A DNA stretch of 3,905 nt, taken from Dictyostelium discoideum. Lineage: Eukaryota. Below, in pieces: positions 1 through 3,905 of this stretch; position 1 is the first letter of the stretch; each line of letters starts with the position of its first letter. The DNA lies in the NCBI GenBank assembly GCA_000004695.1, contig CH709169.1:1-3905 (forward strand), read 5' to 3'. Below the pieces are notes generated by a model, which saw only the letters and a program-made list of their open reading frames with translations, did no database searches and was not told the DNA's origin. Position numbers and translations under genes: made by a program.

Positions 1-136
1 TGAATCTTGTAAAGGCTAAGGAAAGGTTGTTGATTTGATCCTCCATTGATTTCATTCTTAAATCAAAGGATTCAGCGCTATTAGAGACAGAGGTACTACT
101 ACTAGAGGCATCATTATTATTAACAGTGGTAGACAT
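1..136 (-). CDS. 5' end (N-terminal 45 codons) of a host protein-coding gene that continues beyond the window start; Asn/Ser-rich low-complexity N-terminus (MSTTVNNNDASSSSTSVSNSAESFDLRMKSMEDQINNLSLAFTRF...)
   Basis: The reverse complement of 1-136 is an open frame starting with ATG at 136..134 and running off the window. The poly-N/poly-S composition and A/T-rich codons are typical of Dictyostelium-type genes. Immediately upstream (137-250) is an extremely AT-rich promoter-like tract. It is not in the ORF track because it is open-ended. Confidence 0.45.
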   Translation of the reverse strand, partial: MSTTVNNNDASSSSTSVSNSAESFDLRMKSMEDQINNLSLAFTRF

Positions 137-223
137 ATTTTATTGTTGATATCTAAAATTATAATATGAGAAAAATAATAATATTAAAAATTAATAAAGA
201 GAAATAATTATTTGTATAAAATT

Positions 224-236
224 TGTGTGTGTGTGT
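224..236. repeat. (TG)6 dinucleotide microsatellite
   Basis: tgtgtgtgtgtgt read directly at 224-236. Confidence 0.9.
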
Positions 237-349
237 ATCTTAAATATATATAGGAGGAATTCCCAAATAAAATAAATTGTTTTAGTTTTTGTGCCACTAT
301 TTATACGTTTTTATTTTCTTAAAAATTTCGCAAAACTCAAAAAAATAAG

Positions 350-453
350 AGTTTTCGACCCTTCACAACTTTGTGCATAGTGTCGGTTCGGAATTTTTCA
401 GTTTTTCGACCTTACACAATGATCGCGTCATTGTGCCGGTTCGAAATTTTTAC
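350..453. repeat. Two tandem ~50-54 bp units (350-399, 400-453). Each has an internal inverted repeat and ends in GGTTCG(G/A)AATTTTT. A degenerate third copy may lie at 454-475.
   Basis: Unit A is agttttcgacccttcacaactttgtgcatagtgtcggttcggaatttttc and unit B is agtttttcgaccttacacaatgatcgcgtcattgtgccggttcgaaatttttac. Unit B contains a perfect 8-bp stem, cacaatga (415-422) / tcattgtg (428-435), around a tcgcg loop. Its outer arms tttcgacc / ggttcgaaa are also near-complementary. Unit A has cacaa/ttgtg. Confidence 0.7.
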
Positions 454-481
454 TTTTCTTTCGAAAATTTTTTTATTCTTC

Positions 482-499
482 GAATGTTCTAGAACATTC
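482..499. promoter_or_regulatory. Perfect 18-bp palindrome gaatgttctagaacattc. It equals four contiguous, correctly phased nGAAn/nTTCn units (GAAtgTTCtaGAAcaTTC), i.e. a canonical heat-shock-element (HSF-binding) architecture.
   Basis: Read directly from the sequence. The 5-bp unit phasing is exact. An extra TTC at 479-481 and TTCGAA at 460-465 give more GAA/TTC density nearby. It lies ~345 bp upstream of the minus-strand ATG at 136. HSEs act in either orientation. Confidence 0.5.
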
Positions 500-552
500 T
501 AAAAAATTATCTTAAATATTTGGGAAATTCAAATAAATAAATGTTATTCATA

Positions 553-568
553 ATATATATATATATAT
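553..568. repeat. (AT)8 dinucleotide microsatellite. It sits immediately left of the composition change into the foreign block.
   Basis: atatatatatatatat read directly at 553-568. Confidence 0.9.
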
Positions 569-579
569 GATAATATAAA

Positions 580-660
580 TCTATCTGGAATCGATAGCTT
601 ATTGGGCTTCCCACCTAGTTTTTTTGCTTTCTCTTCTACCTCTGATAAAATAGATACCAT
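580..660 (-). pseudogene. Short truncated minus-strand ORF fragment (MVSILSEVEEKAKKLGGKPNKLSIPDRF...). Its reading frame runs out of the foreign block into the (AT)n tract, so any real gene here is cut by the left junction.
   Basis: ATG at 660..658. An in-frame stop lies just upstream (691-693 on the + strand), so it cannot be longer. It shares the 14-mer acctctgataaaat, encoding ILSEV, with the 791-997 ORF. There is no convincing RBS. Confidence 0.2.
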
Positions 661-790
661 CTTCTCAAAGGTAGGGCGTTTAATCCCTATTTAACGGCAA
701 AATGACTCCTCATTCATCACGAACTTGATTCGACAGAATAATAACAATTTATATAAGGTTATGCAAGTCTATAGTTGAAATGTAGTTTTT

Positions 791-997
791 TCAGCGCTTG
801 CAAACATGCTGAGTGTCCATAAGCCAAGTAAAATGATTCACCTCTGATAAAATCTGTTTTTCAATATAGTGTGGTAATAGCCTGTTGGCTGTCGTATGCG
901 CTTGATCTTTATGGATAGATGTTTTGTCAATATCCAGCTGCAGCTTCTGAAAATAACAAGAAGATATTAAACACATCATGATAGCGATCAATGGCAT
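791..997 (-). CDS. Hypothetical small protein, 68 aa, with a hydrophobic N-terminus (MPLIAIMMCLISSCYF...). Prokaryote-like codon mix. Not recognised.
   Basis: This is the ORF-track entry. It has complete start and stop codons, and the maximal open frame is 75 codons. It lies inside the about-45%-GC block. It contains the 14-mer at 840-853 that is repeated at 638-651. No strong SD is visible upstream (agaaaaag only). Confidence 0.35.
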   Translation of the reverse strand: MPLIAIMMCLISSCYFQKLQLDIDKTSIHKDQAHTTANRLLPHYIEKQILSEVNHFTWLMDTQHVCKR

Positions 998-1062
998 TGT
1001 GACTTTTTCTAAGCGATGTTATGCATATGCTGATTTTTTACAGGTGTTATTCATAGGATACT

Positions 1063-1071
1063 TGATATAAT
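1063..1071 (+). promoter_or_regulatory. Extended -10 promoter element TGaTATAAT (sigma70-type), oriented toward the downstream + strand ORFs.
   Basis: ttgatataat read at 1062-1071: TG at 1063-1064, one spacer nucleotide, then TATAAT at 1066-1071. A second TATAAT lies at 1102-1107. No good -35 is present, which is acceptable for extended -10 promoters. A chance TATAAT is possible. Confidence 0.3.
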
Positions 1072-1127
1072 AGCTGGTGAGTGGTCGTTTCGTATATGCT
1101 CTATAATGGCTTACATACACCAATCCC

Positions 1128-1763
1128 ATGGTATCGGTATTGTTGTTGCAACACCTACACTGGCGTGGTCTAAGAAACCAACTCTGGTTAATATCTGAGA
1201 TAGTGTCTAATCCAGATAACAACGTCACCATTGAGCAATACGGTGTACCGAATACCACAGCAGCTTTGTATGAAGCACATAAGTTCCTTTATCTGAACGC
1301 ATGTCCTGGTTCAGTGCTACAACCAGATCGTGATGATCGCGATGAACTGCGTAAACAGGTAGCTTCCGCTATTATCTTCCTCAATACCAACACTCATCTG
1401 TACAATGCACTTCGCGTCACTGGTGAGTTCGAAATTTCTGAGCGCACTATTGAGTGGGTTCGTATGTTGGCCGATGATGGCATTATTGTATCTGGCTTCT
1501 CAACGGTGATTACCAAAAACCGTACCGTTGACAATATCCCTTTAGATACAGCGGCTAGTTCAAAAGATGTATTCGTCAAAGAATTCGAGACGGGCACTTA
1601 CCTCAACATCAAAACACCGGTTGCTGACAAAATCGGAACCCCCAGGAAATGCGGATTACATGAAGGCCTACGTCGGGGAATAATACATGAGCGATACAGA
1701 CATCATGAAGAGTATCGCCCAAGCCGGCGCAACTCCTTTAAAAGTAAACCACTTCAGTTTTAA
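1128..1763 (+). CDS. Hypothetical protein, 211 codons as an open frame. Prokaryote/phage-like codon usage. Probably damaged: the likely authentic C-terminus is ...VADKIGTPGNADYMKAYVGE*, ending at TAA 1681-1683, reached through a 1-nt slip in the C5 run at 1639-1643. The first ~25 codons look non-protein-like, so the true start may lie in another frame. Not recognised.
   Basis: This is the ORF-track entry. The core 1200-1630 has well-formed codons (ctg cgt aaa cag gta gct tcc gct att atc...). After 1644 the current frame switches to rare codons (agg, gga, cta, cgg, ata, cga, aga). The alternative frame gives a clean end followed by an SD and an ATG. Frame 2 upstream (1070-1198) reads ...MAYIHQSHGIGIVVATPTLAWSKKPTLVNI* and may be the real N-terminal part, joined through a second slip near 1196. 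Confidence 0.45.
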   Translation: MVSVLLLQHLHWRGLRNQLWLISEIVSNPDNNVTIEQYGVPNTTAALYEAHKFLYLNACPGSVLQPDRDDRDELRKQVASAIIFLNTNTHLYNALRVTGEFEISERTIEWVRMLADDGIIVSGFSTVITKNRTVDNIPLDTAASSKDVFVKEFETGTYLNIKTPVADKIGTPRKCGLHEGLRRGIIHERYRHHEEYRPSRRNSFKSKPLQF

Positions 1764-1809
1764 CAATAAGTTCATGGTTCATCGTATTACTCATCTCATT
1801 ATTACATAG
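1687..1809 (+). CDS. N-terminal fragment of the next operon gene (MSDTDIMKSIAQAGATPLKVNHFSF...), truncated by the right junction of the foreign block. The in-window stop at 1807-1809 is probably a junction artefact.
   Basis: GGGGAA at 1675-1680 lies 6 nt before ATG 1687. That ATG sits 3 nt after TAA 1681-1683 in the same frame, a classic tightly packed bacterial/phage gene junction. Codons are atg agc gat aca gac atc atg aag agt atc gcc caa gcc ggc gca. Composition decays to AT-rich after about 1740. Confidence 0.3.
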   Translation: MSDTDIMKSIAQAGATPLKVNHFSFNNKFMVHRITHLIIT

Positions 1810-1876
1810 TACTGGTACAAGTGATACTGCTCTCATTCCGACTCTCAAATGTTTAATCGTTCCAAACAGAGAAAAC

Positions 1877-2146
1877 ATGGATAAACCCAAGATTATAATT
1901 AACTCTCATTCCAAAGAAAAACAATTCAAATTAATTCTCGATACTGGAAGTAATGTTAGTTTAATCAATAAGAGGTTGATTTCAAAAGATATGAAGAACC
2001 ACGTTCACAAAACGAAAGCCAAGATTAACTTCCCGCTACTAGACGTCAAAGAAGAGTTTGTTGAACAAATCAATATACAAGTTAACAATGAAATTCATAA
2101 CTTCTTTATTATAGAATTGGATATCATTGATGTACTTTTCGGATAA
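1877..2146 (+). pseudogene. pol fragment: retroviral-type aspartic protease domain.
   Basis: This is the ORF-track entry. It reads KIIINSHSKEKQFKLILDTGSNVSLINKRL ... DIIDVLFG (the conserved ...ILG(M)D(W)L region), then a stop. The frame stays open upstream to 1748 with no CCHC gag knuckle. Confidence 0.75.
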
Positions 2147-2543
2147 TGATATCCTTAAGGACTCTATCATTAACCAAAAAGATAAAATAATCAAGTTGAA
2201 TAACAGTACATACAAAATTAATTATCAAGAGTCGAATCAATTACATTGTAATGTAAAAGCTCCAAGAAAACATGTTACCGTATCCAATGATAATCAGTCA
2301 CAGTCACATAATCTACTAGATGATGATGAAGATATCAAAGAACAAGTTACAAAGTTTGTTGAAAGCATCCCATCACAACTTTGTGATATACTGGTTAAAA
2401 CTAATCCAGAAGAAGAAGAGATACAAGCAGTACGTGATTTCATTAATGATTCATTCGAAGATGTTATAGTAGATAAAATCCTGATATTCCAGATCAGATT
2501 AACAATTCCAGAAGAGGTAATATCATACATAATATCATTATAA
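2127..2543 (+). pseudogene. pol fragment: PR-RT linker region, frameshifted relative to both neighbours.
   Basis: This is the ORF-track entry. It continues the protease C-terminus (NDILKDSIINQKDKIIKL...) after a +1 slip near 2140-2150. It is acidic and low-complexity. Its last ~20 codons overlap the frame-2 start of RT (open from 2477). Confidence 0.5.
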
Positions 2544-3438
2544 AGAAAGATCAAGATGTTGAACCAACAAAGAAACAAATCTATTACTCAACAGATGATC
2601 ATAAGAGACATGTCGAAGAAATGGTTATCAAATTTATAGATTTAGGTATTATCAAAAGATCAGAATCAAATTACTCATCTCCAATCATGTTATTAAAGAA
2701 GAGGATTCATGGCGTGTAGTCCACGACTATCGTCAACTAAATAAAGTCACTATTAGAGACGATCATCCATTCACTCCGGTTGATAGTCTTTTAAATCAAT
2801 GTAAAGATTCAAAGCTTTTCTCAAAGTTTGACATGATTATGGGTTATTTCCAAGTGTTAATTAATCCAGAACACGCAAAGTACACCGCTTTCATTACACA
2901 TATTGGTAAATTTGAATATACTAGAATGCCACAAGGTTTAGTCAACTCTCCATCCACATTCGCCAGATTGATGGTCGAAATATTTGGAAAAATCAAAAGT
3001 TTATTACAATACTTTGATGATCTTTTGGTTCATTCAAAACTCGACTACATGGTACATTTCATTGAAATCATTAGAATGCTTCTATATTGTAGAAAGTACC
3101 TATTATTCATTTCAAGAGAAAAGAGTGAAATGTTAAAGACTGAAGTTGATTTCCTTGGTTTTCACATTCATAAAGATGGTATATCTCCAAGAGCTGCAAA
3201 GGTTAGAGCTATCTCTGAGTTACCTGAACCAAGAAACGCCAAAGAAGCTGAAGCTGCATTAGGTCTTTTTGGATTCTTCAGGAGACACATTGAAAATTAC
3301 GCTGAAAAAACCTATCACCTTTCCAAAGAATCAAAAGGAAAAAACAAGAAAACACTTTCTGATGAATCACTCAAAGAATTCAATAATCTAAAGAAAGAGT
3401 TTGAAGGTGAAAATATTGTCGCTATTCCAATGGGATGA
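2477..3438 (+). pseudogene. pol fragment: reverse transcriptase domain. Frame 2 covers 2477-2716, then frame 1 runs to 3438 (1-nt deletion near 2690-2705). Ends in a stop.
   Basis: Frame 2 reads ...VEPTKKQIYYSTDDHKRHVEEMVIKFIDLGIIKRSESNYSSPIMLLKK, then hits a TAG at 2717-2719. Frame 1 reads EEDSWRVVHDYRQLNKVTIRDDHPFTPVDSLL...FSKFDMIMGYFQV...YFDDLLVHS...FLGFHIHKDGISP...LGLFGFFRRHI... These match gypsy RT blocks (SP..SP...KK.DG.WR.C.DYR.LN..T, Y..DD, F.G.). The ORF-track entry 2833..3438 is its tail. Confidence 0.85.
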
Positions 3439-3469
3439 ATCGTTTTTAAATAAAATTAAGGAAGAATAA

Positions 3470-3905
3470 ATCAATTCTCAATGGCTATTAGAGATGAAAA
3501 AGAATCCAAATTTATGCATTGAAGAAATTAATGATATCTGTTACCTTAGTGAAGATGGGTTCAAGAAATTAATCATCATAGATAAAGAAACTATTCATAC
3601 CGTCATTAGAGAATATCACGATACCAAATATAGTGGTCATCACGCTTTAGATATCACATACAATAATATAAGACAAGATTACTATTTCAAAGAAATGTTT
3701 TCTATTATCAAGAGGTACATAAAGTCTTGTGCAACATGTCAATTGAACATTAACCGTAAAGATAATGGTATACTCCAAAGTTTAGAAATTCCCTTTGAAG
3801 TTTGGAGAGATATATCAATCGATTTCTTATTGCTACCAAAAACAATGTATGCAATAAACGGATTTACAGTTGAAGTCGATCAAGTTTGTGTCATTGTTTG
3901 TAGAT
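3470..3905 (+). pseudogene. pol fragment: integrase N-terminal HHCC zinc-binding domain and the start of the catalytic core. Open to the window end. There is no Met, so it is absent from the ORF track.
   Basis: Frame 2 is open from 3470 to the window edge: ...KLIIIDKETIHTVIREYHDTKYSGHHALDITYNNIRQDYYFKEMFSIIKRYIKSCATCQLNINRKDNGILQSLEIPFEVWRDISIDFLLLPKTMYAINGFTVEVDQVCVIVC. It matches the gypsy IN pattern YHD..GH.G..T...I...YYW..M...V..YV..C..CQ.NK.....G.LQPL.IP...W..IS.DF. Confidence 0.8.

Follow-up and report, generated by a model that had tools for sequence, protein, structure and literature searches.

A perfect 18-bp palindrome in a DIRS-1 left terminal repeat of Dictyostelium discoideum as a predicted heat-shock element

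A small contig of the Dictyostelium discoideum AX4 genome carries, a few hundred bases from its end, a perfect palindrome with the look of a heat-shock element (HSE). Does this site serve a neighbouring cellular gene, a mobile element, or some purpose unrelated to heat shock? The window analysed is the whole 3,905-nucleotide contig CH709169.1 (assembly GCA_000004695.1, positions 1 to 3,905, forward strand). Our reading, held with high confidence, is that the palindrome is the heat-shock element of the DIRS-1 long terminal repeat (LTR), located here in a left inverted LTR, where it would boost LTR transcription under stress.

The palindrome and its phase

The palindrome GAATGTTCTAGAACATTC was located at window positions 482-499 by reading the sequence and by a script check, which also found it identical to its own reverse complement. 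Its context, with the 18-mer capitalised, is ttattcttcGAATGTTCTAGAACATTCtaaaaa. The fit to GAAnnTTCnnGAAnnTTC is exact, at 12/12 specified bases, giving four perfect, alternately inverted nGAAn units in phase, where an HSE was taken as at least three contiguous units in 5-bp phase. Three contiguous nGAAn units are the usual minimum for binding of a heat-shock factor (HSF) trimer. The classical 14-mer HSE consensus, CTnGAAnnTTCnAG, gave two overlapping 9-of-10 matches, at 489-502 (+) and 479-492 (-).

The perfect repeat stops at 18 bp, with C at 481 against T at 500; with imperfection allowed, the inverted repeat around the 18-mer has 15-nt arms at 87%. A TTCTTC at 476-481 adjoins the 18-mer and accounts for the wider interval, 476-499, given by the first-pass annotation, which was made from the sequence alone. 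The additional TTC/GAA triplets that it listed at 456-465 and 476-481 are indeed present, but they lie off the 5-bp phase (the in-phase position 477-479 reads TCT), so that they do not extend the HSE and the array remains one of four units.

In a pattern search, the four-unit pattern matched once in the window and not at all in 200 dinucleotide-preserving shuffles, and the chance expectation estimated from base composition was ~5e-4 per window. The earlier description of an exact four-unit, canonical HSE that is improbable by chance has thus held up. Judged from its letters, the exact 18-mer is a predicted HSF site.

A DIRS-1 copy around the palindrome

The palindrome lies within a terminal repeat at the end of a retrotransposon, whose parts in the window are:

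1-136, minus strand: start of DIRS-1 ORF1 (putative GAG), MSTTVNNNDASSSSTSVSNSAESFDLRMKSMEDQINNLSLAFTRF, with its ATG at element position 444
137-256, minus strand: leader between LTR and ORF1, contiguous with both in other DIRS-1 copies
257-579, minus strand: DIRS-1 left inverted terminal repeat (left LTR/ITR), 323 bp, outer end at 579 and inner end at 257
298-305, minus strand: TATAAATA, candidate TATA box of the sense promoter, 177 bp downstream of the HSE on the strand that runs inward to ORF1
352-446, no strand assigned: two tandem imperfect palindromic units of ~51 bp each, part of the LTR, with arm ends TTCGACC / GGTTCGRAA
482-499, no strand assigned: the four-unit HSE, at element positions 81-98 from the left-LTR outer end
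547-579, minus strand: the left-LTR outer 33 nt, also found as separate 33-34-nt matches (94-100%) ~80-110 bp before each right LTR

The repeat was identified with DM_132 and DM_133, the oligonucleotides published for cloning the DIRS-1 left LTR (Friedrich et al. 2015, PMC4482531 S1 Table). The gene-specific part of DM_132 equals 549-579(-) with 0 mismatches, and the first 16 gene-specific bases of DM_133 equal 257-272(+) exactly. As the primers fit both ends of the 257-579 interval, its minus strand is the 323-bp DIRS-1 left LTR. An alignment of copies showed at the inner end the left-LTR-type GAATTCCCAAATAAAA, not the right-LTR form GAATTCCATAAATCAAATTG. A small indel near this end sets the window copy apart from DM_133 and from other left LTRs.

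We compared the repeat by BLAST with five fetched D. discoideum loci (108.5 kb in all; handles such as L002 are used below for coordinates). It is multi-copy in these loci, at ~75-98% identity, with 17 LTR copies spanning the HSE site (the window's own locus in L005 included) and three truncated copies without the site. The loci are a mosaic of DIRS-1 fragments nested in one another, with Skipper-like copies adjacent. LTR copies adjoin gene models that combine RVT_1 and RNase H domains with a Phage_integrase (tyrosine recombinase) domain, as is characteristic of DIRS elements. A Skipper/gypsy LTR was ruled out for 137-579, because the repeat flanks recombinase/RT genes and fits the DIRS-1 primers. 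The separate matches of the outer 33 nt were at L002 3086-3119 and 9424-9457, and at L005 5060-5093 and 1481-1514.

The complete element could be followed outside the window. The whole 3905-base window is collinear, at 99.87% identity, with L005 8874-12778, part of the 6.43-Mb contig CM142509.1 of another assembly (GCA_054883475.1), the match lying ~72 kb from the contig start; the window is therefore not an assembly artefact. There the left LTR occupies 9130-9452 and the element runs to 4634, a total of 4819 bp, and the canonical DIRS-1 has 4814 bp (PMC7192593). A gene model at 5087..9009(-) starts with the window's 1-136 ORF as its first exon and carries RVT_1, RT_RNaseH and Phage_integrase domains. 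The inverted right LTR is at 4661-4981, followed by a 27-bp extension out to 4634, which begins with the published right-LTR primer sequence TTAAAAATTTAATTTATTAAATTATATTTTA (PMC4482531). The internal complementary region (ICR), next to the right LTR at ~5006-5093, consists of 55 nt of the right-LTR end and then 33 nt of the left-LTR end, 88 bp in all. A span of equal size was found at L002 3086-3173, and the published DIRS-1 ICR likewise comprises 33 + 55 nt of LTR termini, or 88 bp (PMC7192593).

Inverted repeats of ~320-350 bp, the 27-bp right extension, the 88-bp ICR, the ORF content and the size of ~4.8 kb are thus all as in DIRS-1. Compared with the published element in its primer-matched ends, repeat length, inversion, ICR, ORFs and 4.8-kb size, the window's copy shows no substantive difference. 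Positions 1-579 of the window are the 5' end of a tyrosine-recombinase retrotransposon, DIRS-1, lying in reverse orientation, and the LTR is the intact left LTR of a full-length copy in a chromosome-scale assembly. A DIRS-1 terminal repeat had been offered earlier as the alternative origin of the palindrome, and the primers, the ICR, the inverted right LTR and the 4819-bp element all agree with it. The further suggestion of a relic next to a gypsy remnant was not borne out: the left LTR is intact, the element is full-length, and 1.2 kb of unrelated DNA lies between the two. The small AX4 contig can now be assigned to a cluster of DIRS-1 and Skipper close to the end of a chromosome.

This placement bears on the gene that the palindrome was first thought to serve. 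The first-pass annotation put the HSE upstream of a minus-strand host gene at 1-136, and geometry alone would allow an ordinary host promoter made heat-inducible by the site, as the HSE lies 346 bp upstream of the minus-strand ATG at 136. We regard such a promoter as refuted, given that the ORF and its upstream region are themselves repeated. The ORF, leader and LTR are contiguous at L002 19301-19883 (97%, window 1-583), L004 12829-13372 (83%, window 1-579), L004 7190-7578 (91%, window 54-431) and in L005. The peptide MSTTVNNNDASSSSTSVSNSAESFDLRMKSMEDQINNLSLAFTRF begins a 335-aa ORF, present intact in L002, pieces of which were found by tblastn directly upstream of tyrosine-recombinase/RT coding sequence in L002, L004 and L005. 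The region upstream of the ORF, moreover, matches the published DIRS-1 LTR primers. The predicted minus-strand ORF at 1-136 is DIRS-1 ORF1, not a cellular gene, and should carry that label in annotations. DIRS-1 ORF1 is a putative GAG (PMC4482531; PMC7192593).

The LTR varies most in the two palindromic units at 352-446 (10-16% divergence), and several truncated LTR copies break within this region, at LTR positions 85-95 and 165-187. In a diverged DIRS-1 copy (L004 13089-13372, 75% LTR identity) the second ~51-bp unit has CCACGTGG, with a CACGTG core, in place of both its arm ends, and retains its centre, ATGATCGCGTCAT. A tRNA remnant or external B box was considered for the GGTTCGAA-like motifs at 378-446 and rejected, as the motifs belong to these two units; ARAGORN predicted no tRNA and Rfam gave nothing at E<=1.

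Conservation and proposed role of the element

The exact 18-mer occurs in 11 of the 17 LTR copies, left and right alike, and each of the other six has a single substitution or indel. Across the 108.5 kb there are 12 four-unit HSE matches, every one within a DIRS-1 LTR copy and none outside, and the 18-mer is the LTR's only array of three or more units. Divergence from the consensus is 1.6% in the 18-mer versus 5.7% in the remaining LTR. Since the LTR segments 311-328 and 527-562 are conserved as well as the HSE or better, conservation alone does not single it out.

Conservation in both LTRs would also suit a different function. Tyrosine recombinases typically act on sites in which inverted repeats flank a 6-8-bp spacer, and the short inverted arms of the palindrome around its 6-bp TCTAGA core loosely resemble FRT/lox layouts. 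If the palindrome were mainly a DNA site for the DIRS-1 tyrosine recombinase, or a cruciform signal, with the HSE match secondary, this could explain the insertion of DIRS-1 into DIRS-1. The junctions in the fetched loci speak against it. DIRS-in-DIRS junctions fall at many internal element positions (e.g., 3958, 2488, 706, 1944, 3246, 1354), and the breakpoints of truncated LTR copies are at LTR positions 85-95, 165-187, 258 and 293, none at the palindrome (226-243). We rejected a recombinase target for this lack of clustering. In the experimentally supported model the junction falls at the LTR termini/ICR rather than 81-98 bp further in (PMC7192593), and a recombinase site would leave the perfect fit to the HSE consensus, at 12/12 specified bases, to be accounted for. 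We regard this function as very unlikely.

Heat-shock control of DIRS-1 has been described in the literature. The ITRs harbour an active heat-shock promoter (PMC2685390, with reference to Zuker et al. 1984 and Cappello et al. 1984), and this promoter works in yeast (the 1984 work, as cited in PMC2685390 and PMC2175303). The 4.5-kb sense mRNA of DIRS-1 is transcribed from the left LTR, and a 900-nt antisense transcript, E1, is inducible by heat shock or other stress (PMC3950715). Both ITRs are strong promoters, stronger than actin15 (PMC4482531). As the 18-mer is the only HSE in the LTR, we equate it with the heat-shock promoter mapped in 1984; the ITR heat-shock promoter of DIRS-1 (Tdd-1) (Zuker 1984 PNAS; Cappello 1984 MCB, 1985 Cell, M11339) would then be the same element. 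With that promoter in print since 1984, the feature was already known, and its finding here is a rediscovery that by itself adds very little. A full-text literature search for the 13-mer returned only unrelated C. elegans and mouse papers.

We propose that heat or other proteotoxic stress would bring trimeric heat-shock factor onto the four inverted nGAAn units, and that HSF at the palindrome would raise inward transcription from each LTR; being palindromic, the site would work in either orientation. In the left LTR the sense promoter would feed ORF1, with the candidate TATAAATA at 305-298 ~180 bp inward of the HSE. In the right LTR a mirror-image promoter would give the heat-inducible 900-nt antisense E1 RNA. 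The TATAAATA segment is kept in all LTR copies (1.9% divergence in the 293-310 bin) and is a putative TATA box for the sense promoter.

Like the HSEs of hsp promoters, the window's site is built of contiguous inverted nGAAn units, four of them perfect and in phase. Its setting differs: HSEs of hsp genes lie immediately upstream of the hsp TATA, whereas this putative HSE lies in a transposon LTR, at ~180 bp from the candidate inward TATA, which is farther than in the classic hsp promoters. Stress-responsive retrotransposon LTRs carrying HSEs are found in ONSEN/ATCOPIA78 of Arabidopsis, where, as proposed here for DIRS-1, an LTR-borne HSE couples transcription of the element to the heat-shock response of the host. 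Unlike elements of the ONSEN type, DIRS-1 has inverted instead of direct repeats, and a tyrosine recombinase instead of a DDE integrase. Because the repeats are inverted, the same HSE would drive convergent sense and antisense transcription.

How much of this applies to the window's individual copy is a separate matter. Half of the centromere sequence consists of DIRS-1, which is controlled by RNAi (PMC5633606), the locus is a DIRS-1/Skipper cluster on a 6.43-Mb contig whose end is ~72 kb away, and DIRS-1 copies that are 90-98% identical have had little time for decay. The HSE of this copy could thus be a functionless passenger in a silenced, heterochromatic cluster, persisting through youth. 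We see this as possible, if somewhat unlikely. Promoter function is documented for the family (PMC3950715, PMC4482531, PMC2685390), and the site is intact in this copy, whereas 6/17 LTR copies have lost perfection. A passenger in this one copy is also compatible with, rather than opposed to, the palindrome being the DIRS-1 heat-shock element. We infer that the individual copy is active. Its practical output may be small, since in wild-type cells RNAi silences most DIRS-1 expression at the post-transcriptional level (PMC5633606).

DNA beyond the repeat: a split IS5 gene and a gypsy remnant

The LTR ends at 579, and the adjoining 580-1790 is GC-richer (35-46%, vs ~27% nearby). By BLAST, this segment was absent from the other fetched D. 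discoideum loci and present in L005 at the same locus. Contamination or a chimeric contig was ruled out for it by the 99.87% collinearity with the 6.43-Mb contig of the other assembly. No match to 580-1790 was found in E. coli genomes, phages or plasmids (DNA or protein), nor in scans of bacterial and viral contigs.

Its first ~190 bp, 580-772 (-), encode the N-terminus of a decayed, bacterial-type transposase of the IS5 family. This N-terminus (..IGIKRPTFEKMVSILSEVEEKAKKLGGKPNKLSIPDR) directly adjoins the outer end of the LTR at 580; on the other side of the 4819-bp DIRS-1 the reading frame picks up again, from L005 4633 down to ~3990. The reconstructed 256-aa pseudoprotein matched HTH_Tnp_4 and DDE_Tnp_4 (Pfam), and NCBIfam transpos_IS5_4 with E = 1e-34, which is below that model's cutoff. 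Its best full-length relatives, at ~50-60% identity, were nearly all bacterial, with one weaker match from a eukaryote protein set. They came mostly from intracellular bacteria of amoebae or arthropods, and those listed were Chlamydiae, Neochlamydia, Babeliaceae, Holosporales, Ca. Amoebophilus ISCaa3, Legionella, Orientia and Wolbachia. A metagenome contig carried an IS5 copy at 75% nucleotide identity, with the homology ending near window 772. A search for IS5 terminal inverted repeats between window 701-1000 and L005 3881-4100 gave no convincing pair.

The window's DIRS-1 copy thus lies within a decayed IS5 transposase gene of bacterial type, and the IS5-like sequence is a candidate for a DNA transfer from a bacterium to Dictyostelium. 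The split of the gene by DIRS-1 means that the HSE-bearing copy was inserted into apparently horizontally acquired bacterial DNA. The literature searched gave no description of an IS5 gene split by DIRS-1 in Dictyostelium, and this pseudogene, with its nearest relatives in amoeba-associated intracellular bacteria, may merit a look of its own.

The remaining ~1 kb, 773-1790, is GC-richer DNA (up to 46%) with a 211-aa ORF at 1128-1763 (+) and a bacterial-looking GGGGAA-N6-ATG start at 1687. The ORF had no Pfam domain, and no homologue in protein sets of 5.8 billion and 1.84 billion sequences, the same locus in another D. discoideum assembly excepted. Its AlphaFold (AF2) model had a pLDDT of 34, too low to be of use. 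The 773-1790 DNA may have been co-transferred with the IS5 element.

With the HSE palindromic and only 80 bp from the LTR outer edge, it is conceivable that the LTR also fires outward under stress and makes the horizontally acquired segment heat-inducible. Such transcription would enter the 5' end of the decayed IS5 element and then the ~1 kb of GC-richer orphan DNA, where the 211-aa ORF is on the strand of outward transcription, (+). On this strand the HSE is followed by AT-rich TATA-like strings, which are common in this genome. We give outward firing very little credence.

A clean breakpoint at 1790/1791 separates the orphan DNA from a decayed Ty3/gypsy element that fills 1791-3905 and has several frameshifts. 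The remnant gave protease-like, RVT_1 and integrase zinc-finger matches. In comparison with L002 11557-12031, a deletion of ~475 bp at 3425-3431, with a 7-bp overlap at the junction, has removed the RNase H. A relative in L003 is better preserved, with RT, RNase H and integrase and a chromodomain match that is weak and below threshold; these domains fit Skipper, and we refer to the remnant as putatively Skipper-like. Two gene models over window 1128-3438, P0001 (DDB_G0294320, AX4) and P0043 (newer assembly), splice the orphan ORF onto gypsy fragments, and these 'hypothetical protein' models are almost certainly artefactual.

In another strain, a DIRS-1 right LTR with its 27-bp extension directly abuts homologous Skipper-like sequence (L002 9539-9915). 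This junction lies ~30 bp upstream of where the window's gypsy homology starts, indicating that DIRS-1 ends and the Skipper region have been joined independently at least twice.
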